This document shows, in pieces, positions 1-60,333 of a DNA stretch of 64,000 nucleotides. The position numbers and the translations under genes are program-made. Each line of letters starts with the position of its first letter. The stretch's first letter is position 1. A model generated the notes under the pieces. The model ran no database searches and was not told the origin of the DNA. It saw nothing but the letters and a program-made list of their open reading frames with translations. This stretch comes from an uncultured virus (IMG/VR IMGVR_UViG_3300032093_000024). Its lineage: Duplodnaviria; Heunggongvirae; Uroviricota; Caudoviricetes. The stretch lies in the IMG/VR virus record IMGVR_UViG_3300032093_000024; one strand, given 5' to 3'.

Positions 1-121
1 AACTACGGATGAAGGTATTGAGTCCATCTATGATAAGAACTCTACCATTCCTTACCCTTTGGGTATTAGATTCATGTTCAGATTCTACTTCATTGAGTAA
101 TTTTTTGTATAATTCTTTCAT
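1..121 (-). CDS. 5'-3' exonuclease / flap endonuclease (T4 RNase H-like), 5' part only, runs off window
   Basis: Own translation from ATG at 121: MKELYKKLLNEVESEHESNTQRVRNGRVLIIDGLNTFIRS; VLIIDGxN is the N-terminal motif of PIN/FEN 5'-3' exonucleases; directly downstream of recA. Confidence 0.7.
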   Translation of the reverse strand, partial: MKELYKKLLNEVESEHESNTQRVRNGRVLIIDGLNTFIRS

Positions 122-136
122 ATTTTGTAACCTTTA

Positions 137-1258
137 TTAATCACCGATTACTTCCGAGTCTGTCACCAAACTATCAGTATCCAATGAATCTTTTTTGTAT
201 TGTGAAATTGTTGCTTCGCAAATCCTTTTATAGATTTGCTCTTTTACTTCATTGTTAGCATCTAACGTTGAAGGAAAATCTTTGGATTGAAATTTAATCA
301 CTTCGCCAGTATCAATATCAGTATATTCATACCAAGCTCCTGATTGTTTTACAATACCATTGTCCTTCATTATTGCTAACCAAGCTCCATAGTTATCAAT
401 ACCTCTGTCAAAGAAAATATCAAAATCAGCGGAACGTAACGGAGGTCCCATCCTATTCTTTACTACTTGACAACGTACTTTGATACCTACGATTCTCTCA
501 TTACCATTCTCCTTAGCCTTAATCGTTCCCATACTCTTTAATCTTAAACGAACCGATGCGTGGAAAGCGATTGCTTTACCACCAGAAGTTGTCCAAGGGT
601 CAGAGAATGGCATTGCGTTCATCTTCTGTCTTAATTGATTTGTGAAAACCAATGTGATTTTCTGTCTACCAATTAAGTTAGTGATTTTACGCATTGCTTT
701 TGAGATTATGATTGCCTTATCGGTAGCGTAACCATCTTTACCATAATCAGCTTCCATTTCTTTTTCAGTAGATGCGGCGGCAACGGAATCCACCACAATC
801 GTTACATACTTATCTTTGGATTGCGTTCTTACTTTTTCAATGATTGTTTCGGTGTACTCAAAACATTGCTCAACAGTCTCAGCTGCTACATACAACATTT
901 TAGATACATCAACTCCGATAGCTTCCAAGAACTCTCTACTTACGGCATTTTCAGTATCAATCAAAACAGCTATACCACCTAACTTTTGTGTTTCGGCAAG
1001 TAAGTGTGCTGATAATAATGATTTACCGCTTTGTTCAAGTCCTGTCACTTCGGTAATTCTACCAACAGGCAAACCACCATAAGGTCTATTGGAAATAGCA
1101 ACGTCCAACAACGATGCTCCGGTTGAAATCCAACCATCTACATTTGTGGGTGCTTCATCAGAATCCAAAAAGAATGCTACTCTTTGGTCTTTTGATTGTT
1201 TGTTTAGTGATTCGGCGAGCACTGCTGCCAAATCAACTTCTTTAGTTGCTTTTGCCAT
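137..1258 (-). CDS. recA: RecA/UvsX-family recombinase
   Basis: 373 aa; GGLPVGRITEVTGLEQSGKS (Walker A), IDTENA, IVVDSVAA (Walker B), TSGGKAIAFHASVRL, VVKNRMGPP, QSGAWY. Confidence 0.95.
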   Translation of the reverse strand: MAKATKEVDLAAVLAESLNKQSKDQRVAFFLDSDEAPTNVDGWISTGASLLDVAISNRPYGGLPVGRITEVTGLEQSGKSLLSAHLLAETQKLGGIAVLIDTENAVSREFLEAIGVDVSKMLYVAAETVEQCFEYTETIIEKVRTQSKDKYVTIVVDSVAAASTEKEMEADYGKDGYATDKAIIISKAMRKITNLIGRQKITLVFTNQLRQKMNAMPFSDPWTTSGGKAIAFHASVRLRLKSMGTIKAKENGNERIVGIKVRCQVVKNRMGPPLRSADFDIFFDRGIDNYGAWLAIMKDNGIVKQSGAWYEYTDIDTGEVIKFQSKDFPSTLDANNEVKEQIYKRICEATISQYKKDSLDTDSLVTDSEVIGD

Positions 1259-41600: not shown

Positions 41601-44600
41601 GAACCTGATTTGATTTCAGTACTAATAAGTGCATCTTCTGTTAATGCTGATTTTGGAATACGTCTTAAATAAGTACCTTCAGCGTATATGAATGAACTAG
41701 AATCAATAAATAATCCGCCACTTATATCTGATATAAATAAACTACCACTTACTGAAACAGAACCTGTAAATTGAGATGCAATAGATGCCGTAAACGAACC
41801 ATCTTCACCAAATGATGATGTAAATGGAGTTAGTACAACGAATCCAAAATCAGGAGATACCGATGCTGTTACGGATCCAGATTTAATTTCAGCAGATATT
41901 AATGCATCTTCAGTAAGTGCTGAACGAGGTATGTTTCTTAAATATGCACCCTCTCCAAAGAAATTAGAAGATGATTCAAGCAATAATGCTCCAGAAGTTG
42001 CATTTATTATCATACTACCAGTAATCAATAAGCTACCGGTAAATTGTGAACCACTATCTACGGATTCTACTTTAAATCCATAATCAGGTGCTACTGAAGC
42101 GGTTACGCTTCCACTCGCTATACGGAATACTTCTTCTGATAATGCTGAACGAGGTATATCAAATAATCCTCTACCACTACCACTATACATTGAAGCGGTT
42201 AATGTACCTTCTATTTTAGTTGCACCAATAAATTTAATTTCCGCAGGTATTACAATTGAATCTACAATATTCATTGTACCTGCCATAGATGAATGCAATT
42301 GACAGTTATAATACAAAACATTTGGAGAACCAGATGGTGGAGTAAATGTTATTGTTCCATTATCAGTACCATTGTTAGATACTCCACTATTATATTGATT
42401 TGCAGTACCTGTTGTTTGTGTTGTCTTAATTAAGAATGGGTGTCCACTTGCATTTATGTTAAAAGTATGAGTGACACCTCTTACTAAAGTAAGTGTTGGA
42501 TTTGAACCTTGTATTGAACCACTAAACACATACTCACCACTTCCATTATTAGTTACATTATAAACAGGAAATAAAGATGAAGTTAGTACTTCTCTTGCCG
42601 ATGATGAAACTATAAAACTACCACTAATTGTGGAATATGTATTAACCTCAAATCCTCTATCAGGTGCTATTGATGCTGTTACACTTCCACTAAATATTTT
42701 TGTAGAATCAATTGCTAAATTGGCTAATGTAATATTTGTTAATTTAGAACCATCCCCAACAAAGAAAGAACCACTTTCTACATAAAGACTTCCACTTACT
42801 CTTACACTACCAGTAAAGAATGAACCACTTGCGGCAGATTTAACTACAAATCCAAAATTAGGTGAAACTGATGCCGTTACTGAACCAGATTTGATTTCAG
42901 TTGATATCAATGCATCTTCACTTAATGCATTTCTTGGAATATTTCTTAAATAAGTACCTTCACCAAAATATGCAGATGATGAATCTAAAATTAATGAGCC
43001 CGATGTTGTTGTTACTCTTAAACTTCCAGTTATAGCAACACTACCCGTTATTCTAGAACCCAAATCTGACGATTCAACGATAAATCCTCTATCAGGTAAT
43101 GCAGAGGCAGTAACACTACCACTTGCAATTCTAAATAATTCTTGCGAAAGTGCTGAAAACGGAATATCTGTCAATCCAGCACCACTACCACTAAATACCG
43201 ATGCGGAAACTCCCATTCTAAATCTTGCACTGCCACTTACACTTAAACTACCACTAAATGCAGAACCACTTGCTACTGAATTTACTACAAATCCAAAATT
43301 AGGTGCTACTGAAGCGGTAACGCTACCACTAAAGATTTTAGAAGTATCTAAATCAGATATTGCGGAACGAGGTATATCAAATAAATTTCTACCGCTACCA
43401 GAATATGATGAACCGGATGATAAGAATACACCACCTCCACTTATGAATAAACTTCCACTAAATCTTGAACCACTTGTTATTGATTCTACTCTAAATCCAA
43501 AATTAGGTGCTACCGATGCGGTTACACTACCACTAGCAATTAACGAAATATCAAAAGATAAAGCAGAACGTGGAATATCGTAAAGAAATCTACCACTACC
43601 ACTAAATGAAGAACCCGTCTCCAAAAATACACCACCACCAGTAATAAACAACGAACCAGTGAATCTAGAACCAAATTCAGCAGATTCAACTTTAAAACCA
43701 ACACTATCAGGATTTACTGATGCGGTTACACTACCACTTGAAATTCTGTTTGATACTTCCGATGGAACATTTCTCAATCCACTACCATCTCCTACAAAAG
43801 AACCAGATACTAAAGAAGCACTGACTATAAAAGCTCTCAAACTACCACTTATATCAACAGAACCTGTAAATTGAGAACCATACGCTGAGCCCGTTCTATC
43901 GGTTTCAACTTTGAATCCAAAATCAGGTGTTGTTGATGCGGTAATTGAACCTGATGCTATTCTAAATGCATCACCGGTAAATGCAGAACGTGGAATATTA
44001 AATAATCCACTACCATCTCCTTGAAAGAATGAACCACTAAAAGAGCCTGTAAATTCCCTTGCTCTTACATAATCTCTTACATACAATCCACCACTTATAG
44101 CAGTATTGCCTTCAAATAAAATTCTATCTTGAAGATATAAGTTATCAACTATACTCATTGATGCACCCATCGCAGAGTGGAATTGACACTGATAAAATAA
44201 AGTATCAGGTGAACCCGAAGGAGGTGTGAAATATACTGAACCACTATCTTCACCGTTATTTACAACTCCAGTATTATATTGTGCTGCTGTACCAGTTGTG
44301 GCAGTTGTTTTTATAAAGAAAGGATGCCCGTTTGCATTTACTTCAAAGCGGTAAGTTACCCCTCTTACTAAAGTCAATGCTGGGTTTTGTCCACTTGCTG
44401 CACCATCAAATACATATGCAGATGAACCAGCTGAAGTTACATAAAAATAATTTGGTATTGATGAGGTTGCTAGCGGTTCTGCTGAAGATGATACTACAAA
44501 ACTACCACTAATTGTTGAACGAGTATTTACAGTAAATCCGTAATCTGGTGTAATTGATGCGGTATATGAACCACTAAATATTTTTGATGTATCTAAATCA

Positions 44601-47241: not shown

Positions 47242-50200
47242 TTATATTTGAAGTGCCAATGAGAACGGAGTTACCAATGAGAATAGAGATTTACTAAACG
47301 TTCTACCCACAAGAGTACCAGTTGCCTGGTTAATACTTAAACCAGTACCGATTCTAAAGTCACCATCTTGGTTACCGGATGTGAAGAAGATTCTACCCCC
47401 ACCCAATTCGGTAATTTCAAAAGCCGGATTTGCAACACCACTACCACCTTGGTTTGGAGGGAGTGCTTTAAATGTCACACCACTACCATTATAGGAGTAG
47501 TCAATACCAGTTGCCACAATTAGAGAACCAAATGATTCCAATGGTGCTCCAGCTGCGATAAACTCAGCTCTCGTTCTTAAATATCTATTTGTTTCAAGAG
47601 TCTCTAATTTTTGAGAAGAAATTACCGCTTGTGCACTTCCATATTGTCCTGTATAGTAAGAAGATGCTGCTGCAATTGCTCTTTCATTGCCACCATACAA
47701 CAAATCAGTTGCACATGCATCAACAATCAATCCAGTATCTCTTGAACAACTAGCTTCATTATATACTAAATATGGGAATGCTCCATTTGTATATCCGATT
47801 GCTCTTTGTTTCAATTCATCTTTAGCCGCTACTAATCTTGCTGCTGCTTGTCTTCTCTTTGTAGAAGGTGCTAAATAAGTTAATTGAGTGTTTCTAACTA
47901 ATTTTTCAGCTATACCTCTTGCAAAGTTAATACCATCTACAGTTTGTTTCTTTTGTCCAACTTCACCATTATCAGTATATGATTCTGCGATTGCTACTGA
48001 AGGTATTCTATAATAATAAGAACCTGCCTCAATACTTCTTTCATTACCACCATATACCAAGTCAGTTCTGATAGCGTCTATAATAAATCCTAAATCACGA
48101 GAACAACTTACTTCGTTATATTTTAATGTACTCCAAGAAGAACTCAAGAAAGTAATTGTTTCTTTTTGAATTAATGGTTTATTGAATGTTAATAGTTGAG
48201 CCGTTCTCATTAATGAACCAGAAGCAACCCACACATCTACATAAGTTGGATTTGTTACTGATTTACTTGCCAATCTTCCCGCATATCTTACACCAGTAAT
48301 TGTTGGGTCCAATTGGTTTTGTTCAGAAGGTACACCTGCGTTAGTTGCCCTTGATGGGAATAAATAATAGTATGTTCCCGCTATTACACTTCTTTCTTGT
48401 CCACCATAAAGAAGGTCAGTTGTTGCTGCATCAATCAAATACTTAACATCTCTACTACAACTTGCTTCGTTATATTTAACACCACTCCAAGAAGATGAAA
48501 CATATGCAATAGCTTCCGCCGCAATAAAGTTTTTGTTTTCTCTTAATAAGTAAACTGAAGAAGATACTGCCAAAGATGCTGTATTAAACTCAACGTTTTG
48601 TATTACCTTTTGTGCTATTCTACTTGCGTAGTTTATACCATCATTGGTTTGTTTTAATTGCCCATCACCATCTCCATCGCCCAATAAAGTTGCTTTAGAT
48701 GGATATTTGAAATAGAATTCTCCACTCATCACAGTTCTTTCATTACCACCATACAATAGGTCAGTTGCTACACCATCAATAATATATCCAACATCTCGTC
48801 TACACTTAGCTTTATCATAATTAAAGTTAGCCCAACTTGATGTTAAGTAATGTAATGTTTCTTCTTGTATAAACTCTCTATTACTTCTTAACAATGCTAC
48901 TGAAGCAGATACTACTTGCGATGCGGTAACAAATACTTTATTTTGAATAATGTTCTTAGCTATTCCACCCGCGTAATCAATTGCATTTACAGTAGATTCT
49001 AATTGAGAACCAGTAGCCAATGAAGGATATAAGAAATAATACAATCCTGCTTTAGCACTTCTCTCATTACCACCATAAAGAATATCAGTTGATACGGCAT
49101 CTATTAGGTGTCCAACATCCCTTCTACATTTAGATTCGGTATATTGTAAACCAACCCAAGAAGAACTTACATAAGCAATAGTTTCTTCTTGTATGAATGC
49201 CTTATTTTGTTTCATTAACGCGTGAGATGCTGATGCGTAGATTGAAGCGGTAAAGAATTGAGTATTTACAATTACTTTTTGTGCCAATTGCCCTGCATAT
49301 CTCATAGCATCCAATGTTTCATCTAATTGAGAACCAGTTGCCGCTGATGGATATAAGTAATAATATAATCCCGCAGTTCTTATTCTTTCATTACCACCAT
49401 AATAAACATCGGTTGCAACAGCGTCTATAATGTGAGAAATATCTCTCTTACACTTATCTTCGTTATATGTAAATGCTACATCAGAATTAGAACCAGTCAC
49501 CCAAGATGAACTAATATACGCTATTGTTTCATTCTGAATAAATGGTTTATTTTGATTTAGCAATGTCCATGCAGTTGTTCTTTCAATTGAAGCTGTTTGG
49601 TACTCAATATTTTGAAGTACTTTTTGTGCTAATTTACTTGCGTAGAATAATCCATCCAATGTGTAGTTCAATTGAGAATCAGTTGCTTGTGATGCTGATT
49701 CAAAATAGAACTTACCATTTACAATTGATGCAGAATCTACACCAAACAACATATCTTCAGCTGCACCACTAATAATCAATCCAACATCTCTCTTACATTT
49801 AGTTTCATCGTAAGATGCAGTACTCCAAGAAGAACTAATATACGCGATAGTTTCATTTTGAATGAATCCTATGTTTTCTTTTAATAAGTTATATGCGTAA
49901 TAAACATTAGATGCAGTTGATGGAGTTGTGTAAACTACAGGAGTTGGTAATGAAGCAGTTCCAATTGCCACAATATTTGTTACTATTGAAATTGATGCTG
50001 AAATTAAAGAAGCCTCATAAGTTGTTCCATAATTAGATGATGCAGTTATATACTGATTTGCATTTGTAAACTTAATACTTTCAGATGTATTTGAAATTAA
50101 TGATGGAATTGAACCCGTACCAACTTCTACAATATTTGTTACTACTGCAAATGATGAACTTACTCTATTCACTTCATATGCGGATGCTGAGTATGAAGCT

Positions 50201-53200
50201 GAGTATTGTGTTGTTCCAGTAACTTTAATATTATTCGCAGTATTCAATATAATTTGTGGTTCTGCTATTAAGTTACTATTAATGATTTGCTCAGTTAATC
50301 TTCTAGCATAATCAATTGCAGTTGTTGTTTCAACTACCTGCTCTGATTCGGTTGCCAATGAAGGATATAAGTAATAGAACTCTCCAGCTTTATTACTTCT
50401 TTCATTACCACCGTATAATAGGTCAGTTGCTACTGCATCTACAATATATCCAACATCTCTACGGCATTTAGATTCAATATAATCCAACTCAGGCCATTTA
50501 GCGTTTACAAACGCTACGGTTTCTTCCTGAATGAAAGTTTTGTTATTTTTAATTAGATTATATGCGGTTTGGTTGTTAGCAGATGGTGATACAAATGTTG
50601 AACCACTCACAATATTCATCGCTAATCCCCTAGCATGTCTAACGCCGGTTAATGTTGGTTCTAATTGTTCATCAGTTGCTTCGGATGGGTAATCATAATA
50701 ATATCTACCTGCAATAATACTTCTCTCATTACCACCATATAAAATATCGGTTGCAACCGCATCTATAATGTAACCTAAATCTCTTTCACATTTAGATTGA
50801 GAATACACAAATCCTTGCCAAGATGAACTTAAATACGCAATAGATTCTGATACTATAAATTGTTTGTTTGTTCTTAATGATGCCCAAGAAGAAGAAACAA
50901 ATGATGAAGAAAAATGTGTTAATACAGTATTTCTAACTACTTTTTCAGCCATTCCACCTGCAAACTTTAATGCAGTTACAGTCTGGTCTAATTGAGAACC
51001 AGTAGCTTGAGAAGGATAGTCAAAATAGAATCTTCCATTTACGAAAGATGCGGAGTTTCCACCATATAATAAATCAAATGCTGCACCACTTATAATTAAC
51101 CCTACATCTCTACTACAACTTGCCTCATTATATACAAATGTTGACCAAGATGAACTCATAAATGCAATTGTTTCATCTATAATCATTTGTTTATTATCTA
51201 ATAATAAATTATACGCATTATTGATTTTTGCATTAGTATTTGGAGTAATAGCAGGTGCCTCATAAACAACTGAACTCGTACCATCATTTAATAATGTATC
51301 AATTACTAAAGAGAATGATGAAGAAATAAGTTTAGCTTGTAATCTATCTGCACTACTTCCACTTATTATTTGCGGTGTTGCTGTAACTTTAATACTTGCA
51401 GATGTATTTGGTATTAATGTTGGAATTACCGATGTTCCGGTATTTACTATATTCAATACAATACCAAACAAGTTACCAATTCTATTTATTTCAGAACCAC
51501 TACCCGTAATTGAAATTGCGGTTGCGGTTGTTGTTTTTATTGAAGAAGAAGTATTTGAAACCAATGTTGGTATAGAACCAGTTCCATTGTTTATAATATT
51601 AATTACGTTTCCAAATGAACTACTAATACTTGCAGTTTGGGTGTTATACGTTCCACTTCCTAAACTTTGTGTTATTGATGAAATATGCAATAAAGTTGGT
51701 GTACTTAATTGGAATCCATAATTGTAATTATTTGCCAAACTATCAGGCACAGACGCAGAACCCCAATAAATAATATCTCTTATTAATCCAAATGATGCCG
51801 TTGTTATACCAACTTCAATTGAACTTGCTGATACAGATGAAGTAATTTGAGATTCATTTGATACTTTAATAGAAGAACTTGAGTTTGTTACAAGTGGTGG
51901 TACTACATTCAATCCACCTGCAATAATTTCAGTAACTAATGCAAATGATGAACTCACTTTATTAATTTCTACTGTTGTGGCAGATATTGATGATGTAATT
52001 GGAGTTATATGACTTACTCTAATATTTGCATTAGTATTTGAAACTAAAGTAGGTGAAGATAATTGTAAATTTTGAACTATCTTTTTAGAAAGTGATTTTG
52101 CATATTCAACACCCGCTACAGTTTCAACTACCTGGTCAACTTTAGTTGCTTTAGATGGATATCTATAATAGTAATCACCAGCAATAATACTTCTCTGATT
52201 ACCACCATACCAAAGGTCAGTTGCTACGTTATCAACGATATACCCAACATCCCTTCTACATTTTTCTCTATTATATCTCAAATATGGATAGAAAGCATCA
52301 ATAAATTGAATAGTTTCGTTTTGTATAAATGTTCTATTATTTTTAAGAAGATTATACGAAGATGAAACAAATTCAGTTGGTGAAGTCAATAATTGTGAAG
52401 ATATTACTTTTTGTGAAATACCCGCTGCAAATTGAATACCATCAATAGTAGGTCCTTTTTGTGCATTCGTTGTTGGAGAAATTGATGAAGTATATACTGC
52501 TGCAGAAGGATATAAATAATAGTATTCACCTGCTTTAGAACTTCTTTCGTTACCACCATATAATAGGTCAGTTGCTACATTATCAATAATATACGCAACA
52601 TCTCTACTACAACTTAATTCGTTAAATGTAAAACCACCAACATTAGTCCAAGATGAACTCAAAAATGCAATAGTTTCTTTTTGAATTAATTGTTTATTTT
52701 GTCTTAACAAATTCCATGCAGTAAGTTCTGAATTAGTAGGTTGTAATAATGTTATATTTTTTGCTACCTTTTCAACTAAACCTTTAGCGTGTTTAATACC
52801 ATCCAATGTTTGGTCTAATTGTCCTTCATCATTACCATCACCTTCTACTATTGCAAGAGATGGATATAAATAATAGTATTCACCAGCTTCTCTACTTCTC
52901 TCATTTCCACCATAAAGTATATCAGTTGCCACAGCGTCAATTATGTAACCAACATCCCTTCTACATTTAATTTGGTCATATTGGAAAAAACTCCATGCAG
53001 AATTAAGGAATCCAATAGTTTCAGTTTGTACTAAATCTTTATTTTCTTTTACTAAATTATATGTAGTTTGAACTGAAAGTGAAGCTGTTACAAATACTCT
53101 ATTATTAAGTATTTGCTCCACCATATGCTTAGCGTGCTTAATACCACTTAATGTTGGTCCTAATTGAGATGTTGTTGCTTGAGATGGGTATCTATAATAA

Positions 53201-56200
53201 AACTCCCCTGCCTCTATACTTCTTTCATTACCACCATAAACTAAATCAGTTGCAACTGCATCTAAAATATAACCAACATCTCTTTTACATGTTTGTTCGT
53301 TATATGATGCAGTACTCCAACTTGCAGAAACATATGCGATAACTTCATCGGCAATAAATCCTTTATTATTGTAAATCAACTCTCTTGCCTGCAATCTATT
53401 TTGAGATACTTTACTAAATGTATTACCTCTTAATAGTTTATCTGCCAAATCTCTTGCATATCCAATACCAGTAACAGTTTCTTGTATTTGTGAGCCTGTT
53501 GCTTCTGATGGATAAAGGTAATAATAAACTCCTGCTTTAATTGTTCTTTCGTTGCCACCCCACTTAACATCAGTTGCCACTGCGTCAATTATATAACCAA
53601 CATCTCTCTTACAAGTATTTTGGTCATAAGAATGAGATGCCCAAGAAGAAGATAAATATGCAATTGTTTCTTCTTGAATAAATCTTTTGTTGTTTACTAA
53701 AATATCATGTGCAACTAATGATTGTGAATTTGGATATGATAATACCGTATTTACAATTAGTTTTTGTGCTAATCTACTTGCATAGAATACTCCATCTAAA
53801 GTTTGATTTAATTGTGAACCTTGTGCTTGAGATGGGTAATCGTAATAAAATTTACCGTTTACTACTGATGCGGAGTTACTATTCCAAATAAGGTCTTCAG
53901 CTGCGCCACTAATAATTAATCCAACATCTCTACGGCATTTTTCTTCATCATAAGATGCAGTTGACCAAGATGAACTCAAATAAGCAATAACTTCATTTTG
54001 TATGAATGGTATATTTTGTTTTAATATTCCGTATGCTGCTAATACAGCCGATGAAGATACCGATGAAGTATATGATGATGTAGGTAAATTTGCTATAAAT
54101 GAACCAGTACCATTTGATATAATATTTGTTACTATTGAAATAGATGCCGATATTGCATTTACTTCGGTTTGTGTTGCAGATGATGCAGAAATGTATTGTG
54201 GTGTTGATGTAACTTTAATATTATTTACAGTATTTAGAACAAGTGTTGGTAAAGAGCCTGTACCATTTTCTAATATATTAATTACTCTATTAAAACTAGA
54301 AGTTATATTATTAGCTAATGATTTAGATACTGCAACTGATGATGAATATTGAGTTTCATTTGTTATTCTCAACAATGCGTTTACATTCTTTACCAATGTT
54401 GGTAATGAGCCAGTTCCTTCTTTCACAATATCTAAAACAATATCAAAACTATTGTTTGAGCCAGTAATAAATGTATTAGATATAGATGCGGTTGAAATAA
54501 ATTGAGGATAGTTTGTATTTTTAATTAATCCACTTGCATTATTTACCAAATTTGGAATTGAACCAGTACCATTTGCTATAATATCCAATACTATATTAAA
54601 ACCAGTAGTTACTTTTGCAGAATCAGATGGAAGTGGTTGTACCGATGAACTAAATTGATTATTAGTTAAACGTATAACACCCTTTATTGAAGAAGATGTA
54701 ATTGTTGGTATTGCAGAAATACCTTTATCTATAATATTAATTACATTTCCAAATGATTGAGATACAATGTTTTTATCGGTTTGATTTACAATACTTGAAG
54801 TAATTGTTTGTACTTCACTAGTCTTTTTAATACCATTTTCAGTATTTGAAACTAAAGTTGGAAACGCAGAACTACCACTTTCAATAATTTTTGCTACATT
54901 ATCAAAACTATCTTCTATTGCCTTACCACCAATCGCAACCAACTTTGCCAAATCTCTCGTAAATCTTACTGCATCGGTTGTTTCGGTTACTTGTGCATCC
55001 GTTGCTTGTGATGGGTATAAGAAATAGAATCTTCCTGCAGTAATTGCTCTCTCATTTCCACCATATACTAAATCAGTTAAAACATTATCAGTTATAAATC
55101 CAACATCTCTAAAGCATTTAGATTGTATATAATTTAATGTTGGATATGTATCGTTCACATACTCAATAGTATTTTGTTGTAAGAATGTTCTATTATCTTT
55201 TACTAATTTTCTTGCGGCTAATACAGCTTCAGATGGATTAGTTAAACTAACATTCTTAATAATATTTTGTACTAATTGATTTGCGTAATAAACACCTGTT
55301 ATAGTTGGGTCTAATTGCTGAGATACGGAAGGTTCTCCACCCACCGTTGCTGCAGATGGATATCTATAATAAAAATCACCAGCAACAATACTTCTTTCAT
55401 TTCCACCATATACCAAATCAGTTCTTACTGCATCTAAAATATATCCCACATCTCTTTTACACTTAGCCTCATTATAATAAACTCCACTCCAAGAAGATGA
55501 AACATATTCTACAACTTCTGCCGCAATAAGTTCTTTGTTTCTTCTTATTAACTCACTTGCGTTTATTGAATTAAGTGAAGCTTGTGTGAATGTTTCTCCA
55601 ACAACAATCTTTTGTGCTAATCTACTTGCGTAGTTGATAGCATCAGTTGTTTGAATTAATTGTGAACCAGTTGCTGCCGATGGATATGTAAAATAGTAAT
55701 CCGCTGCTATTCTAGTTCTTTCATTACCGCCATAGATAATATCAGTTCTGATTGCATCTAAAATATATCCAATATCCCTTCTACAAGTTGTTTCATTGTA
55801 ATCAAAACTTCCCCAAGATGAACTCATATATGCTATGGTTTCATCTGCTATAAAATCTTTGTTATTCAATATCAAGAATGAAGCACTTGCTCTACTTCCA
55901 GTAAATTGTTGTAATTCTATATTTTGAATTAATTTTTGTGCTAATCTACTTGCGTAGTTAATACCATCTAAAGTTTGTGCCAATTGAGAACCAGTAGCCT
56001 GCGATGGATATTCATAATAGAATTGTCCATTTACTACTGATGATGAATTTACGTTAAAAATTAAATCTTCAGCGGCACCACTAATAATTAATCCAACATC
56101 TCTACGGCATTTAGCTTCATCATACTCAAATGTACTCCAAGAAGAACTTAAATATGCTATTGTTTCGTCTTGTATGAAATCAATATTTTGTTTAATTATT

Positions 56201-59200
56201 TCATAAGCAGCTCTTGCATTAGATGATGATAATGGAGCCGTATATGGTTGCTTACCAAATACACCTGCACTCTCACCTCTTTCAATAATTTTAGTTACAA
56301 TTGAAATTGAAGATGAAATAAATGCAACATCTTCCAAGCTTCCACTATAAGATGAAGAAACGTATTGTTCAGTTGCACTTACTTTAATATTTTGAGATAA
56401 AGAAGAAGTTAATACAGGTATTACCGATTTACCACTTACTAATACATCGGTAATAAGTTTCATTGATGAACTAATACTTTGTGATTCTGCAGTTGTTGCT
56501 GGTATTGCCAAAGTTTCTAACGATGTAGCAGTTACTTTAATGTTTGCCGCTACACTTGATGTATAAAGTGGAATTGAACCAGTACCATTTGTAATTATTG
56601 TACCTATCAATGATATAGATGCGGACAATGAACTACTTAACGCACCACTTGCGGCATTTGAACCACTATATTGTGCTAATGAAGTTACTTTTATCGCATT
56701 TGCCTGTGAGTATGTGATTGCTGGTTCAGCTGCAATACCACCTGCAATAATTGTATTTACAATATCATATCCACTTCCAATTTTATTAACTTCGGATGGA
56801 GATACAAATGATGATGTAACCTGTGAACCAGATGTTACATTAAGAGGATTATCTTTACCCCAATTTAAACCCGTATTTTGTGCCAATATTGAAGGTACAG
56901 CGGATATACCTCTTTTAATAATTCCTTCAATAATTGCAAAAGAACTACTAATAGAATTTTGTTGAGTTTGCGTACCACTATTTGATGATGTTACATTTGT
57001 ATTATTTGTAACTTTAAAATTTCTCTCATCATTATTTACAATTCTTGGTGTATCTAAAATAATATTACTTACAATATAATCAGTAATAATTTTTGCGTAT
57101 TTAATTGCACCAATTGTTTCTCTTCTTTGAGTTGTTGTAGCAATAGATGGGTATTCATAATAATATTTACCTGCTATTACACTTCTCTCATTTCCACCAT
57201 ACAACAAGTCAGTTGAAACATTATCTAATATGTATCCAACATCACGTCTACACTTTTCTTGGTTATATGATAATTGTGGAAAAGCAACATTTACAAATTC
57301 AATTACTTCATTTTGTATTAAACTCTTATTACTTCTTATTAAAGAGTATGCAGCTTGTGAAGATGTAGTTGGTAAACTAAATGTTTTTCCTGCAACTAAA
57401 TTATTTACTAAACCTGCTGCAAAGCGAATACCATCTAAAGTTTGTCCCAATTGTCCATTACCATCACCATCTCCCTCAACAATCGCTAATGAAGGATATA
57501 AATAATAAAATTCACCCGCTTCAATACTTCTTTCATTACCTCCATATAGAGTATCAGTTGCTACAGCATCTAGAATATAACCAACATCTCGTTTACACTT
57601 TGCTTCATTATAATAAAAATTAGACCAAGAAGAAGATAAAAATGCAATAGTTTCATTTTGTATAAATGATTTATTGTTATTGATTACTTGCCATGCAGTT
57701 TTTCTTTTTTGTGTATATGCATCTAAATCAATATCCCTAAATGTTTTATTTTTGATAAGTTCAATTGCTAATCTAGCTGCGTATTTTACTGCTGTTTTGG
57801 TTGGGTCTTTTTGTGATGTAATTGCACTAGATGGATATTCGTAATAGAATCTACCTGCAGTAATACTTTTATCATTACCACCCAATAATAGGTCTTGCGC
57901 AACAGCATCAATCAAGAAACCAACATCTCTACGGCAGGTTGCCTCATTGTAATAGAATCCATCTACACCACTCCAAGAAGATGAAATATACTGTATTACT
58001 TCTTCTTGAATAAATGCTTTACTTCCGGTAAGAATTTCAAATGCGTTAATTATATCAGTGTCTTCACTAGCCACACTTCCACTTATAGTTGCTGGATATG
58101 TTAGTGTATTTGCAATTAATTCTCTTGGAGTTTCTGAATTATTTATTATAAAGAATCTACCACTTAATGTATTATTAATTTGTGATGTATAATATAATGT
58201 ATTTGGTGCATCATATGGTACAGTGAACGTAATATTACCAACACTATCACCATTATTTATTACGCCTTTATTATAATCAAAAGTGTTTGCAATAGTTTCA
58301 ACTGGTTGTGTTCTTATAAAGAATGGATAATCAATTCCACCTTGTCCTTCCGATGCACTTACATAAAATTTATAAGTTTCACCTCTAAATAAAGTTATTG
58401 TAGGATTATTACCAACACCATCCCAATTATAAGATGAACTGTTTACATTTGTAATTGTATAATTTCTTCTATGGTTATTTGGAATTGGTAAAATATTACT
58501 ACCAGTACCATTTGATAATATGTTATAAATTATACTAAAACTTGCACTTACTTTATTAATTGTTTCTACTGAAGATGAGATACCACTTTGAACTGGTTCT
58601 AATCCACCAATATAAAAACTTGCACTTAATGAAGAAGTTAATTTTGGTACAACACTTAATCCATTTTTTATAATATCTATTACGGTTTCAAAAGATGAAC
58701 TTATACTAGCGGTTACATCATTTGGTAATGCCGGAGAAGCAGGTGATGGTATTATTGATGTTCTTCTAATACTTGCCGATGTTGATGATTTAAAATCATA
58801 GGAACCAGTACCATTTGAAAAAATACCTAATAATACACCAAACGAAGAGCTAATTTGATTTAAATCTCCTTGAGATGCAGATAGTGGAGTAGCCGAACCA
58901 GAATAAGAGCCTGTAATTTGTGTTGCTCCTAAAATATTATAAGGTGATTCTGAACTAAATCCTTTATTTGAACTTCTTGCTAATAACGTAGGATAATTTG
59001 AAGTACCACTATCTACTATTTCACTTACTAATTTAAAATCCGCTGAAATTTCATCCGCAGCGGTTGAAGATAATTCTACTCCAGATGAAGTAGTGTATTG
59101 TGGAAATTGAGAAGGAGATGATAAACGGATACCTTCCGCTGTATTTAATGTTGTTACTTCAGGCAATGCATCTAACCCTCTATTCAATACATCAACAACT

Positions 59201-60333
59201 ACACTCCAACTTGCTCTTACTCTATCTCTAGCATCAATATTTCCACCACTACCACTAATAAAACGAGAACCACTAGCATACATACCATACAAACCAAACG
59301 AAATGTTTGAGTTGTTTAGGGTAGCATGTCCACCATTGTTTACTCTAATTGCATAATATGAGAAGTTATTAAAGAAAGATACGAGCTGAATGAATCCTCT
59401 ACCATTTACCAAACAACCAACTCCGTTTGGAGAAATTTGTGTATAGGCATCTAATACCATTGAAGCGAGTGGTGAATCAGGATTGATTACATCACCATTA
59501 ACATACAATCCACCACCGCCAGGAGGAATTTCTTCATAAAGCTCCGTAAATGAATTCTCTTGGTTAGAAATTTGTGAACAGTTCTGAACGTATGGTGAAG
59601 TTGTGATAAATGCACCAGGTTGGAACGCTACAGCAAATCCTTTTTCAGGATTTATTTGGTCAGGAAATAATCTCAATCCTCCCATAGTAACCTCTGCGAT
59701 ATAACAACCAGAGTTTACATAGAATAAGTCTTCAGTAGGGTTTTTAGCGTTGATTTTTGTAATACGCAAACCTGCACCCCAAATAGTTGTATTTTTAGGA
59801 AGTATAACAGGGTTATCTTCCAAATATGTACCAGCCTGAACTTTAATTACATATCCATTTTGAATAGAACCCGTATCAAAACCATAACGTCCATCGTATC
59901 CAGGTGCTGCTAATGATGCAGCTCTTTTAATTGTACGAAGTGGAAATTGAATAGTTCTACCATCATTTGTATCATCACCATCGGTAGAAGAAACATATAG
60001 TGTAGGTACGTTAGCACCAAAATCTTTTGCCAAAATACCAGAATATCTTTGTGTATCTTCTGCTAATATTGTGTTTGATGATGTAATTGATAAAACAGTA
60101 TTAGGTGCTCCCGTTTTTAGAACACCATCAATTATCAACGAACCAGTTAAAAATACTGAACCTGTAATCTCATTTTTTGAACCGGTATCGTTTCCCATAA
60201 AGAAACTTTTTGATACAAAAAGTGAGCCAGAAATAATCGCATCATTTCCTAAAAACAAGTTTTCCGCAACCGTTAAAGACCCGGTTATATTTTGTTGTTC
60301 TTCAATTTGTTTACGAGGTATCAGTCTAGCCAT
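47242..60333 (-). CDS. Giant virion protein (4363 aa): beta-helix-like N-terminal domain + 23 CxRD helical modules
   Basis: LYVSSTDGDDTNDG..PLRTIKRA..IKVQAGTYLEDNP..SPYVQNCS (pectin-lyase-like start); 23 copies of Yxxx[KTS]CxRDxG..D...GGNERS..AG.YY.YPS. Confidence 0.85.
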   Translation of the reverse strand: MARLIPRKQIEEQQNITGSLTVAENLFLGNDAIISGSLFVSKSFFMGNDTGSKNEITGSVFLTGSLIIDGVLKTGAPNTVLSITSSNTILAEDTQRYSGILAKDFGANVPTLYVSSTDGDDTNDGRTIQFPLRTIKRAASLAAPGYDGRYGFDTGSIQNGYVIKVQAGTYLEDNPVILPKNTTIWGAGLRITKINAKNPTEDLFYVNSGCYIAEVTMGGLRLFPDQINPEKGFAVAFQPGAFITTSPYVQNCSQISNQENSFTELYEEIPPGGGGLYVNGDVINPDSPLASMVLDAYTQISPNGVGCLVNGRGFIQLVSFFNNFSYYAIRVNNGGHATLNNSNISFGLYGMYASGSRFISGSGGNIDARDRVRASWSVVVDVLNRGLDALPEVTTLNTAEGIRLSSPSQFPQYTTSSGVELSSTAADEISADFKLVSEIVDSGTSNYPTLLARSSNKGFSSESPYNILGATQITGSYSGSATPLSASQGDLNQISSSFGVLLGIFSNGTGSYDFKSSTSASIRRTSIIPSPASPALPNDVTASISSSFETVIDIIKNGLSVVPKLTSSLSASFYIGGLEPVQSGISSSVETINKVSASFSIIYNILSNGTGSNILPIPNNHRRNYTITNVNSSSYNWDGVGNNPTITLFRGETYKFYVSASEGQGGIDYPFFIRTQPVETIANTFDYNKGVINNGDSVGNITFTVPYDAPNTLYYTSQINNTLSGRFFIINNSETPRELIANTLTYPATISGSVASEDTDIINAFEILTGSKAFIQEEVIQYISSSWSGVDGFYYNEATCRRDVGFLIDAVAQDLLLGGNDKSITAGRFYYEYPSSAITSQKDPTKTAVKYAARLAIELIKNKTFRDIDLDAYTQKRKTAWQVINNNKSFIQNETIAFLSSSWSNFYYNEAKCKRDVGYILDAVATDTLYGGNERSIEAGEFYYLYPSLAIVEGDGDGNGQLGQTLDGIRFAAGLVNNLVAGKTFSLPTTSSQAAYSLIRSNKSLIQNEVIEFVNVAFPQLSYNQEKCRRDVGYILDNVSTDLLYGGNERSVIAGKYYYEYPSIATTTQRRETIGAIKYAKIITDYIVSNIILDTPRIVNNDERNFKVTNNTNVTSSNSGTQTQQNSISSSFAIIEGIIKRGISAVPSILAQNTGLNWGKDNPLNVTSGSQVTSSFVSPSEVNKIGSGYDIVNTIIAGGIAAEPAITYSQANAIKVTSLAQYSGSNAASGALSSSLSASISLIGTIITNGTGSIPLYTSSVAANIKVTATSLETLAIPATTAESQSISSSMKLITDVLVSGKSVIPVLTSSLSQNIKVSATEQYVSSSYSGSLEDVAFISSSISIVTKIIERGESAGVFGKQPYTAPLSSSNARAAYEIIKQNIDFIQDETIAYLSSSWSTFEYDEAKCRRDVGLIISGAAEDLIFNVNSSSVVNGQFYYEYPSQATGSQLAQTLDGINYASRLAQKLIQNIELQQFTGSRASASFLILNNKDFIADETIAYMSSSWGSFDYNETTCRRDIGYILDAIRTDIIYGGNERTRIAADYYFTYPSAATGSQLIQTTDAINYASRLAQKIVVGETFTQASLNSINASELIRRNKELIAAEVVEYVSSSWSGVYYNEAKCKRDVGYILDAVRTDLVYGGNERSIVAGDFYYRYPSAATVGGEPSVSQQLDPTITGVYYANQLVQNIIKNVSLTNPSEAVLAARKLVKDNRTFLQQNTIEYVNDTYPTLNYIQSKCFRDVGFITDNVLTDLVYGGNERAITAGRFYFLYPSQATDAQVTETTDAVRFTRDLAKLVAIGGKAIEDSFDNVAKIIESGSSAFPTLVSNTENGIKKTSEVQTITSSIVNQTDKNIVSQSFGNVINIIDKGISAIPTITSSSIKGVIRLTNNQFSSSVQPLPSDSAKVTTGFNIVLDIIANGTGSIPNLVNNASGLIKNTNYPQFISTASISNTFITGSNNSFDIVLDIVKEGTGSLPTLVKNVNALLRITNETQYSSSVAVSKSLANNITSSFNRVINILENGTGSLPTLVLNTVNNIKVTSTPQYISASSATQTEVNAISASISIVTNIISNGTGSFIANLPTSSYTSSVSSSAVLAAYGILKQNIPFIQNEVIAYLSSSWSTASYDEEKCRRDVGLIISGAAEDLIWNSNSASVVNGKFYYDYPSQAQGSQLNQTLDGVFYASRLAQKLIVNTVLSYPNSQSLVAHDILVNNKRFIQEETIAYLSSSWASHSYDQNTCKRDVGYIIDAVATDVKWGGNERTIKAGVYYYLYPSEATGSQIQETVTGIGYARDLADKLLRGNTFSKVSQNRLQARELIYNNKGFIADEVIAYVSASWSTASYNEQTCKRDVGYILDAVATDLVYGGNERSIEAGEFYYRYPSQATTSQLGPTLSGIKHAKHMVEQILNNRVFVTASLSVQTTYNLVKENKDLVQTETIGFLNSAWSFFQYDQIKCRRDVGYIIDAVATDILYGGNERSREAGEYYYLYPSLAIVEGDGNDEGQLDQTLDGIKHAKGLVEKVAKNITLLQPTNSELTAWNLLRQNKQLIQKETIAFLSSSWTNVGGFTFNELSCSRDVAYIIDNVATDLLYGGNERSSKAGEYYYLYPSAAVYTSSISPTTNAQKGPTIDGIQFAAGISQKVISSQLLTSPTEFVSSSYNLLKNNRTFIQNETIQFIDAFYPYLRYNREKCRRDVGYIVDNVATDLWYGGNQRSIIAGDYYYRYPSKATKVDQVVETVAGVEYAKSLSKKIVQNLQLSSPTLVSNTNANIRVSHITPITSSISATTVEINKVSSSFALVTEIIAGGLNVVPPLVTNSSSSIKVSNESQITSSVSASSIEVGITTASFGLIRDIIYWGSASVPDSLANNYNYGFQLSTPTLLHISSITQSLGSGTYNTQTASISSSFGNVINIINNGTGSIPTLVSNTSSSIKTTTATAISITGSGSEINRIGNLFGIVLNIVNTGTSVIPTLIPNTSASIKVTATPQIISGSSADRLQAKLISSSFSLVIDTLLNDGTSSVVYEAPAITPNTNAKINNAYNLLLDNKQMIIDETIAFMSSSWSTFVYNEASCSRDVGLIISGAAFDLLYGGNSASFVNGRFYFDYPSQATGSQLDQTVTALKFAGGMAEKVVRNTVLTHFSSSFVSSSWASLRTNKQFIVSESIAYLSSSWQGFVYSQSKCERDLGYIIDAVATDILYGGNERSIIAGRYYYDYPSEATDEQLEPTLTGVRHARGLAMNIVSGSTFVSPSANNQTAYNLIKNNKTFIQEETVAFVNAKWPELDYIESKCRRDVGYIVDAVATDLLYGGNERSNKAGEFYYLYPSLATESEQVVETTTAIDYARRLTEQIINSNLIAEPQIILNTANNIKVTGTTQYSASYSASAYEVNRVSSSFAVVTNIVEVGTGSIPSLISNTSESIKFTNANQYITASSNYGTTYEASLISASISIVTNIVAIGTASLPTPVVYTTPSTASNVYYAYNLLKENIGFIQNETIAYISSSWSTASYDETKCKRDVGLIISGAAEDMLFGVDSASIVNGKFYFESASQATDSQLNYTLDGLFYASKLAQKVLQNIEYQTASIERTTAWTLLNQNKPFIQNETIAYISSSWVTGSNSDVAFTYNEDKCKRDISHIIDAVATDVYYGGNERIRTAGLYYYLYPSAATGSQLDETLDAMRYAGQLAQKVIVNTQFFTASIYASASHALMKQNKAFIQEETIAYVSSSWVGLQYTESKCRRDVGHLIDAVSTDILYGGNERSAKAGLYYFLYPSLATGSQLESTVNAIDYAGGIAKNIIQNKVFVTASQVVSASVALLRSNREFIQEETLHYLTSSWANFNYDKAKCRRDVGYIIDGVATDLLYGGNERTVMSGEFYFKYPSKATLLGDGDGDGQLKQTNDGINYASRIAQKVIQNVEFNTASLAVSSSVYLLRENKNFIAAEAIAYVSSSWSGVKYNEASCSRDVKYLIDAATTDLLYGGQERSVIAGTYYYLFPSRATNAGVPSEQNQLDPTITGVRYAGRLASKSVTNPTYVDVWVASGSLMRTAQLLTFNKPLIQKETITFLSSSWSTLKYNEVSCSRDLGFIIDAIRTDLVYGGNERSIEAGSYYYRIPSVAIAESYTDNGEVGQKKQTVDGINFARGIAEKLVRNTQLTYLAPSTKRRQAAARLVAAKDELKQRAIGYTNGAFPYLVYNEASCSRDTGLIVDACATDLLYGGNERAIAAASSYYTGQYGSAQAVISSQKLETLETNRYLRTRAEFIAAGAPLESFGSLIVATGIDYSYNGSGVTFKALPPNQGGSGVANPAFEITELGGGRIFFTSGNQDGDFRIGTGLSINQATGTLVGRTFSKSLFSLVTPFSLALQI
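47540..59230 (-). repeat. Protein repeat array: 23 CxRD modules (~105-115 aa) in 5 clusters plus 23 single-helix units (~50 aa) in 5 runs
   Basis: Counted by eye in the translation; DNA-level echoes such as ctttcattaccaccata and caacatctct recur. Confidence 0.85.

Follow-up and report, generated by a model that had tools for sequence, protein, structure and literature searches.

A giant tail-region protein of an uncultured virus carries balanced arrays of two helical units and is predicted to fold as a branched rod

A 64,000-nucleotide stretch of DNA from an uncultured virus of the Caudoviricetes (hereafter the window) carries a minus-strand open reading frame (ORF), 47242..60333, that encodes a giant protein of 4363 amino acids (aa; P0001). 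The window is part of IMG/VR record IMGVR_UViG_3300032093_000024, which is 91,093 bp long and estimated to be 52% complete. Two repeated units occur in blocks along the giant protein: a single-helix unit of ~51 aa (H) and a module of ~108 aa marked by the motif Cys-x-Arg-Asp (C). There are 23 of each, one H unit being weak, and among complete homologues the two totals stay equal across many different arrangements. We propose that the giant protein is a fibre of the myovirus tail region and that it probably folds as a single-chain branched rod of 23 split five-helix domains.

Two unit types in ordered blocks

The regular expression C.RD finds 23 sites in the giant protein, in clusters of 3, 4, 6, 3 and 7, with a spacing of 108–119 aa inside clusters. 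A hidden Markov model (HMM) of the module recovers the same 23 C modules at 102–155 bits; the last one, C23, scores 102 bits, versus 135–155 for the others. The corresponding model for the H unit finds 22 strong units (independent E-value, i-E, of at most 2.5e-12) with a period of ~51 aa. A 23rd unit, H0, lies at residues 355–394, outside the HMM seed. Its match is weak (i-E 0.003; 11.3 bits and i-E 0.0024 after one iteration), and the unit is clearly recognisable as H in more distant homologues. One extra match of the H-unit HMM, inside C12, was discarded (i-E 0.2).

Along the chain the units read H5 (four strong and one weak), C3, H5, C4, H6, C6, H5, C3, H2, C7, with a running difference of H minus C of 5, 2, 7, 3, 9, 3, 8, 5, 7 and 0. 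A first-pass annotation, made from the sequence alone, had described these arrays by eye. They are confirmed here: motif search and HMMs return its 23 H and 23 C units (22 clear H units plus H0), its block order and its running difference. The position-specific variants that it had noted are likewise seen in the alignment. The first module of clusters 2–5 (C4, C8, C14 and C17) is the GLIISGAA..VNG variant, and in the last module of all five clusters (C3, C7, C13, C16 and C23) xPxLxY replaces SSSW. The parts of the giant gene are as follows.

47242..60333, minus strand: whole giant gene, stop codon included (ORF of 4363 aa)
59278..60333, minus strand, residues 1–352: N-terminal region, beta-helix-like (weak PF12708 match; best stretch of phrog_5342 at residues 112–216)
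58474..59277, minus strand, residues 353–620: H block 1, the weak H0 (355–394) and four strong units (H-unit HMM)
58072..58473, minus strand, residues 621–754: tip domain of the first hairpin, 135 aa, filling the gap from the last H to C1 (weak CBM_4_9 match)
57052..58071, minus strand, residues 755–1094: C cluster 1, C1–C3 (C.RD and module HMM)
56230..57030, minus strand, residues 1102–1368: H block 2, five units, with a long linker containing NWGK after unit 1 (H-unit HMM)
54916..56235, minus strand, residues 1367–1806: C cluster 2, C4–C7 (C.RD and module HMM)
54061..54930, minus strand, residues 1802–2091: H block 3, six units, the first helix-only (H-unit HMM; units 4–6 folded with C8–C10)
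52057..54063, minus strand, residues 2091–2759: C cluster 3, C8–C13 (C.RD and module HMM; C8–C10 modelled)
51238..52035, minus strand, residues 2767–3032: H block 4, five units, H17–H21, with a long linker containing NYGF after unit 2 (H-unit HMM)
50263..51243, minus strand, residues 3031–3357: C cluster 4, C14–C16 (C.RD and module HMM; in the junction model)
49930..50241, minus strand, residues 3365–3468: H block 5, two units, H22–H23 (H-unit HMM; in the junction model)
47536..49923, minus strand, residues 3471–4266: C cluster 5, C17–C23, of which C23 is the most divergent (C.RD and module HMM)
47245..47535, minus strand, residues 4267–4363: non-repetitive C-terminal tail (C-terminal end of phrog_3442 at residues 4270–4361)

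In the architecture that we propose, each domain would combine a ~108-aa four-helix C module with one helix, a short strand and a linker contributed by an earlier ~51-aa H unit. Pairing would be nested like brackets, the last H unit laid down joining the first C module that follows. The chain would leave the N-terminal beta-helix region as single-file H helices and, after a turn at a tip, run back as C modules that grip these helices. H units left over when a C cluster is too short for the preceding H run would stay unpaired until the last C cluster closes them. The resulting trunk would hold seven domains (H0, H1, H5, H17, H18, H22 and H23 with C23 to C17) and bear four side arms, with 3, 4, 6 and 3 domains in turn; the 135-aa beta-rich domain would sit at the tip of the first arm. 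The N- and C-terminal regions would meet at the base, which would be the attachment end.

H and C totals balance across the family

Nested completion requires equal totals of H and C, and the first-pass annotation had expected balance and paired insertions and deletions (co-indels) in homologues. Relatives were collected by a protein search (308 at E of at most 1e-10; 120 among the matches listed, of 2785–5154 aa) and by DNA scans, which contributed 10 viral and 63 metagenomic loci. H units were counted at i-E of at most 0.05 with the full HMM or at most 0.01 with a helix-core HMM. The C-terminal tail of the giant protein is conserved in complete homologues, and this region served as the marker of completeness.

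Beyond the first block, the 122 complete non-redundant homologues fall into 22 architectures, and their total C ranges from 15 to 28. By automatic count, 115 of them have five more C than H units after block 1. Since the first block always consists of four strong H units and the weak H0, a later excess of five C modules means that the whole protein is balanced. The seven exceptions (three architectures) have a divergent but homologous helix-only unit at the start of block 3, which gave an i-E of 0.058–0.34 or no match. With these units restored, 19 architectures remain, which imply at least 18 changes, all of them balanced. Parsimony on a FastTree phylogeny of the N-terminal domain gives 47 changes, a figure that recombination or tree error may inflate, and none broke the balance. 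In a second sample, 15/15 complete ORFs were balanced, the difference being 0 in 3 and 1 in the 12 in which only the weak H0 escaped detection. Shorter complete forms, H5C3H6C8 (11/11) and H3(+H0)C4 of ~1090 aa, extend the rule down to a total of four C modules. In every listed architecture the running difference of H minus C, once H0 is counted, is never negative and reaches zero only at the end.

Close relatives differ widely in architecture, and the expected co-indels are indeed found. They are confined to one H|C junction at a time, as in the series H1C6, H2C7, H3C8 and H5C5, H6C6, H7C7. Further local changes turn H6C6 into H6C4H4C6 or H4C2H4C6, and in others the whole H6C6 arm is lost. 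Because one contiguous duplication cannot make H2C7 from H1C6, the balance appears, from these comparisons, to be maintained by selection and not by the mutation process.

This bears on a simpler reading, in which H and C form independent rod segments like beads on a string and equal counts arise from cassette duplication or length matching, with no helix insertion. Tandem helical repeat rods are common, which speaks for it. However, individual blocks are unbalanced (H5C3, H5C4, H2C7) and yet totals balance in all complete proteins, and a contiguous duplication would not yield the co-indels just described.

Apparent counter-examples with H5 and C9 (P0145–P0151) proved to be fragments cut at contig ends, and the complete genes are balanced. 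The "N-terminal domain" of these fragments corresponds to a ~415-aa insert that lies between H17 and H18 in some homologues. Metagenome and virome assemblies (L199–L260) often break inside the homologous gene, and 36 ORFs are open at a contig edge. Thus, many database "proteins" of this family are truncated, start at an internal Met, and seem unbalanced. Extra domains of ~160, ~327 and ~415 aa also separate neighbouring H units in homologues (L013, L016, L047, L058 and others), and a single homologue can have the 415-aa insert in as many as three blocks. In Pfam, only the 415-aa insert has matches, which are weak; the 160- and 327-aa inserts have none.

Predicted contacts between H and C units

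Structure prediction of fragments, which the first-pass annotation had proposed as a check, gave a confident hairpin consistent with nested H–C pairing and predicted antiparallel contacts in a pair of distant segments. The hairpin model covers residues 1934–2415 (H14–16 and C8–10) and was made with AlphaFold2 from a 137-row alignment of orthologous and paralogous junction fragments. It has a mean pLDDT (predicted local distance difference test) of 90.0 and a pTM (predicted template modelling score) of 0.88, with one 20-residue helix per H unit and four helices per C module. In a structural search (VIA), single chains of ~150 residues align to the hairpin over the ranges 121..263, 96..372 and 45..480. 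These ranges correspond to an H unit plus its bracket-matched module, namely H16 with C8, H15 with C9 and H14 with C10.

Units far apart in the chain are also predicted to associate. C19–20 (residues 3694–3917) and H17–18 (2767–2868), which lie ~900 residues apart, were submitted as two chains. Their complex score had a median of 0.77 (runs of 0.66, 0.77 and 0.78), and none of the three controls scored above 0.00. In calibration, 116 of 157 solved complexes and 2 of 215 mismatched pairs reach the mark applied to this score, figures that are only roughly valid with custom alignments. The runs share at least 84% of their contacts, which exceed 300, and partner pLDDT is at least 80. The pairs of lowest error place the H17 helix (residues 19–35) on C20 (118–122, 158–166 and 207–218). 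It sits there against alpha1, alpha2 and alpha4 of the second module, which is the antiparallel register expected from nesting. In the controls, C19–20 without H fell to a pLDDT of 43–46 and H17–18 without C to 38. Both parts lose confidence, and each therefore looks incomplete without the other. A search of the PDB by sequence found no similar complex.

A three-way junction of 1151 aa (H17–21, C14–16, H22–23 and C17–20) was modelled from a 23-row alignment, with a pLDDT of 81.8 (69–92 for the H17–18 blocks). Beta-bridge residues occur in it at ten places only: five starts of H units (56, 166, 215, 603 and 654) and five ends of C modules (373, 482, 813, 928 and 1036). As read from the DSSP line, four bridge pairs would be local rungs, and the pair 56 with 1036 would be a rung from H18 to the C19/C20 boundary, 980 residues apart. 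A VIA alignment on the junction, 55..1032, spans H18 and C19 and agrees with this predicted long-range rung. Overall, the models predict H–C contact, the antiparallel register and one long-range pair, and each H helix may thus touch its bracket-matched C module.

The bead-like arrangement gains one point from these models, since the C modules are predicted as four helices with a core of their own. The confident hairpin, the interface score with its contacts, and the loss of confidence of C19–20 without H all count against it, and together with the balance data they make it highly improbable.

Long linkers fall at predicted branch points

The bracket scheme also predicts where the chain should branch. 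The giant protein has three long linkers among its ~18 H–H linkers, and all three fall on branch points predicted by nested pairing. First-in-first-out pairing, whose branch points would follow unit 3 in block 1 and unit 2 in block 2, with another within block 3, explains 0/3 of them, versus 3/3 for the nested order, and was rejected. Across the family (115 of 122 proteins), 94% of 334 predicted branch points have an H–H spacing of 56 aa or more (median 59), versus 3% of 1532 other H–H linkers (median 51). The motif N[WYKFH]G[KFY] follows the same division, with 108/334 at predicted branch points and 2/1532 elsewhere.

These data help to weigh a second alternative, a domain-swapped homo-oligomer whose copies would complete each other's C modules with their H runs, so that a bundle or lattice results instead of a single-chain tree. 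Phage fibres are usually trimers. Swapping would also require balanced H and C totals, and in the two-chain prediction H and C do bind in trans. Against it, co-indels are always local to one H|C junction, the running count behaves as nesting within one chain would have it in every architecture, single chains fold confidently as hairpin and junction, and the long linkers lie at branch points predicted for pairing in cis, although these points still leave room for swapping in the trunk. We consider swapping unlikely, and pairing in cis would then give the tree.

Several observations weigh against the branched single-chain rod. The trimeric habit of phage fibres is one, and H0 is weak in the giant protein itself (11.3 bits). 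Seven of the 122 homologues come out balanced only after a divergent unit is recognised by eye. The linker evidence comes down to three ancestral positions (block 1 after unit 2, block 2 after unit 1, block 4 after unit 2); H5C8 forms, with no predicted branch, keep the long linker, and at derived branch points, as in H6C4H4C6, it is missing and the spacing is 51 aa. The structural evidence is prediction, with contacts read from the contact list of the complex, alignment ranges and the DSSP pattern, and the junction model has a pTM of only 0.62 from its 23-row alignment. The complex prediction also passes close cousins of the true partner, so its score shows that H binds C, not which H pairs with which C. 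Nested completion of C modules by H helices and the branched rod, as the first-pass annotation had envisaged them, are thus supported by prediction and comparison only.

Likeness of the completed domain to phycobiliproteins

The completed H+C domain would resemble the globin-like fold of phycobiliproteins, which provide both its best structural and its best sequence-profile matches (PF00502; phycocyanin alpha, allophycocyanin, the ApcE bilin domain). In VIA, bilin-binding phycobiliproteins and photocobilins make up 8 of the top 10 matches for the hairpin and for the junction model alike, with Z of 8.3–10.1, where values below ~13 can arise for unrelated helical models. Allophycocyanin 8or7_A aligns with Z 10.0–10.1 and a root-mean-square deviation (rmsd) of 2.0–3.0 Å over 102–112 residues at 12–19% identity. 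The best structural match has an rmsd of 2.0 Å over 102 residues at 19% identity. Other top matches include the ApcE bilin domain and phycoerythrin, followed by globin-coupled sensors and colicin pore domains. Foldseek against the PDB gave only spurious membrane proteins at a template modelling score of ~0.1.

Sequence profiles point to the same family. A profile of the 23 modules, run against all PDB sequences, has six matches at E < 1 (E 0.45–0.9), and five of these are phycocyanin alpha. The alignment places kC.RDvGY...GG on KCARDIGYY...GG with an identical 18-residue spacing. The Cys-x-Arg-Asp of the modules falls on K83-C84-A85-R86-D87-I88-G89-Y90 of phycocyanin alpha, so that the shared motif K-C-x-R-D-[IV]-G-Y...G-G aligns to Cys84, Arg86 and Asp87. 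On the central helix of phycobiliproteins, Cys-x-Arg-Asp is the site of bilin attachment and coordination.

PF00502 is the best Pfam family for module C10 (13.7 bits, E 0.061; one of the 23 modules), and a six-frame scan of the record gave a single PF00502 match (12.9 bits, E 0.0046). Both stay below the gathering cut-off of 22.2. Several homologues carry precomputed PF00502 matches. When 601 modules were compared by hhalign with real cpcA and cpcB sequences from cyanobacterial contigs, the probability was 69.7% overall (E 4e-5) and 82% against alpha alone, with E ranging from 1e-5 to 4e-5, and only 0.8% against beta alone. The reversed control gave 0.1%, and the best of 60 column shuffles scored 24.8 versus 34.4 for the real alignment. 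Under a loose setting, helices B to G line up in the same order in both profiles, and a P-S motif also aligns.

Taken together, remote homology of the H+C domain to phycobiliproteins is on balance likely. The competing explanation is convergence, in which a generic up-down helical bundle keeps C-x-R-D for a structural reason of its own. It draws on the sub-threshold PF00502 scores, the high E-values of the PDB profile matches, the Z of ~10, which lies below the caution level, and the near-absence of signal against the beta subunit. Convergence does not readily account for independent methods pointing to one family, for phycocyanin alpha supplying 5 of 6 profile matches with the same spacing, for bilin-binding proteins dominating the structural matches of both models, for hhalign probabilities of 70–82% above all 60 shuffles and the reversed control, or for the collinear P-S motif. 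We regard it as a possible but less probable explanation. No single score is significant, and the giant protein is therefore not filed as a member of the phycobiliprotein family; the likeness is a new, testable lead. It would differ from known phycobiliproteins in several ways: no X-Y helices align, one helix is supplied from elsewhere in the chain, and the domain is concatenated 23 times in a phage structural protein.

The motif is strongly kept. Its Cys, Arg and Asp are present in 99.8–99.9% of 2938 unique modules (mean identity 47%), and D57, Y73, T88, Y38, Q84 and S78 in 97–99.9%. In the complex model, D57, Y73 and T88 are listed in the H interface and the Cys-Arg-Asp triad is not, where an unlisted residue may still make contact. 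The boldest reading is that each of the 23 domains is a phycobiliprotein-derived site that still binds bilin through Cys-x-Arg-Asp, giving a branched, chromophore-bearing fibre that senses or uses light. It would fit the likeness of fold and motif and a near-invariant triad off the modelled list of H-interface residues. Against it, all homology scores are below threshold. No lyase or bilin genes were found in five partial records, that of the window and four related ones, in which searches for psbA (PF00124) and CpeT (PF06206) gave no match; at 21–52% completeness these records are uninformative on this point. Overall, retained bilin binding is decidedly improbable. If true, it would explain at the molecular level why cyanomyoviruses adsorb in a light-dependent way, and it would provide the bilin-synthesis and lyase genes of phages with a client on the phage side. 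The accessible part of one source describes the mechanism of that adsorption as unknown, perhaps seated in the tail fibres, and independent of host photosynthesis (PMC6628666).

Distant relatives and comparable systems

Contiguous arrangements occur in distant relatives. P0231 (2190 aa; also P0234 and P0241) shares 28% identity and carries precomputed PF00502 matches. Its C and H units alternate as a tandem array, in which eight H units and eight cores are counted by eye, and it also has a ~340-aa beta-helix-like insert. One of its domains appears split, with alpha4 and the H helix before two complete domains and the core after them (by eye). Since tandem distant relatives keep the 1:1 ratio, this ratio seems older than the nested arrangement. 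The contiguous form, a module and then an H helix, suggests that the H helix is the last helix of the globin-like domain.

T4-like cyanophage giants (phrog_4527, phrog_5342; S-PM2 p091; a DSL-LC03 "baseplate wedge initiator") share the C.RD module and an H-like helix. They differ in that identity is 25–35% and their units are few and largely tandem or differently split. No described fold or topology for them was found in the searches made, and Foldseek against predicted viral structures matched only unannotated cyanophage giants. S-PM2 p091 (L197 8092–18108, 3338 aa) has, by eye, five C.RD cores, five alpha1-type helices and five H-like helices. Four of the alpha1-type helices form a run that repeats every ~44 aa; after it come the cores, which repeat every 131 aa, with an H-like helix ahead of each core. 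The protein p091 may thus balance its counts with a different split point. In DSL-LC03 (L198 1243–13566), a 4107-aa protein annotated as "baseplate wedge initiator", encoded between two baseplate wedge genes, has a single C module (residues 2606–2709) followed by an H-like helix, which hints that such domains can sit in baseplate proteins.

By analogy, the closest known principle would be the out-and-back nesting of flagellin and flagellar hook-type proteins, in which inner domains are inserted in outer ones and the termini lie together. As in our model of the giant protein, their outer domains are built from N-side and C-side segments. Flagellin has 2–4 unlike levels and is unbranched, whereas the giant protein would have 23 homologous domains with a common split site, in stacks as deep as 8, together with four side arms and a count rule across the family. 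Spectrin-type rods also chain helical modules of ~106–110 aa, but their repeats are contiguous and self-sufficient, whereas in the giant protein every module would be one helix short, the missing helix being kept in an array of its own.

Branched adsorption apparatuses with several binding modules are described for receptor-binding proteins, as in dual-receptor-binding-protein Klebsiella phages, where, in the accessible part of the source, several proteins dock on one another (PMC13579863); here one polypeptide would branch. In the literature consulted, mainly openly available and including the accessible part of PMC3037559, there is no description of a 23-fold branched split-domain topology or of a phycobiliprotein-like phage fibre.

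Genomic setting and possible function

The window carries almost all of its genes on the minus strand. PHROG matches around the giant gene outline a myovirus tail region with sheath, tube, baseplate hub and wedge, tape measure and a fibre-assembly protein, and with three giant fibre-like ORFs. The giant gene itself is flanked by head-tail joining genes and the two further giant fibres. It matches the tail-fibre profiles phrog_4527 (E 4e-210) and phrog_5342 (E 5.5e-193), and so combines a tail-fibre profile match with a place among tail genes. From these matches and this neighbourhood, and thus by homology only, it is annotated as a putative virion protein with a possible role in adsorption.

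A public protein collection holds an identical protein (P0002). A Pfam scan of the whole giant protein and PDB sequence searches with a C cluster and with the N-terminal 620 aa gave nothing meaningful, and megablast against phages found no match to the giant gene. The N-terminal region has a weak match to the pectate-lyase-like beta-helix family PF12708 (E 0.002, below the cut-off). With the first 3000 residues as query, tblastn found parts of the giant protein at 25–35% identity in 172 phage records. Nearly all of these are Synechococcus or Prochlorococcus myoviruses, in which the matching proteins are annotated as short tail fibre, tail fibre-like or structural protein. For the 135-aa tip domain, the first-pass annotation had suggested a cupredoxin-like fold; this is not supported, the one match being to CBM_4_9 (E 8.7e-4, 20.1 bits versus a cut-off of 25.9).

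We infer that the giant protein may serve as a host-recognition scaffold, with its N- and C-terminal regions together at the attachment end, and that balanced indels could vary its length and branching. If the model is true, the domains of this repeat protein would be arranged by a grammar of brackets, like RNA stems. One chain would build a branched rod, and H and C have stayed equal through all the gains and losses of units that were observed. Giant structural proteins without annotation, of which cyanophages and their relatives have many, could be read in a new way, and the protein would offer a natural template for the design of branched single-chain protein scaffolds. It would also pose a folding problem, as up to nine helices would wait unpartnered during synthesis. 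The phycobiliprotein likeness suggests that a light-harvesting fold of the host may have been recruited as a virion building block, and it makes light-dependent cyanophage adsorption testable on a defined protein.

Other large genes of the window

Giant genes are not limited to the one described above. The neighbouring ORF at 35681–46222 (minus strand, 3513 aa) has collagen-like and tail-fibre PHROG matches. Within it, a stretch at 36–40 kb has a GC content of 0.46–0.48 versus ~0.33 elsewhere, and long spurious ORFs overlap it on the opposite strand. The ORF at 25019–33637 (minus strand, 2872 aa) matches tail-fibre PHROGs, and that at 4186–8490 (minus strand, 1434 aa) matches only a PHROG of unknown function. 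No Microcystis phage is among the 172 tblastn records obtained with the first 3000 residues of the giant protein. The tail sheath (21334–23694, minus strand) is closest to that of Microcystis phage Mel-JY01 (46.8% identity, 99% coverage) and to those of Flavobacterium phages. The proteins of the three large ORFs named above and the giant protein together exceed 12,000 residues in this phage fragment.

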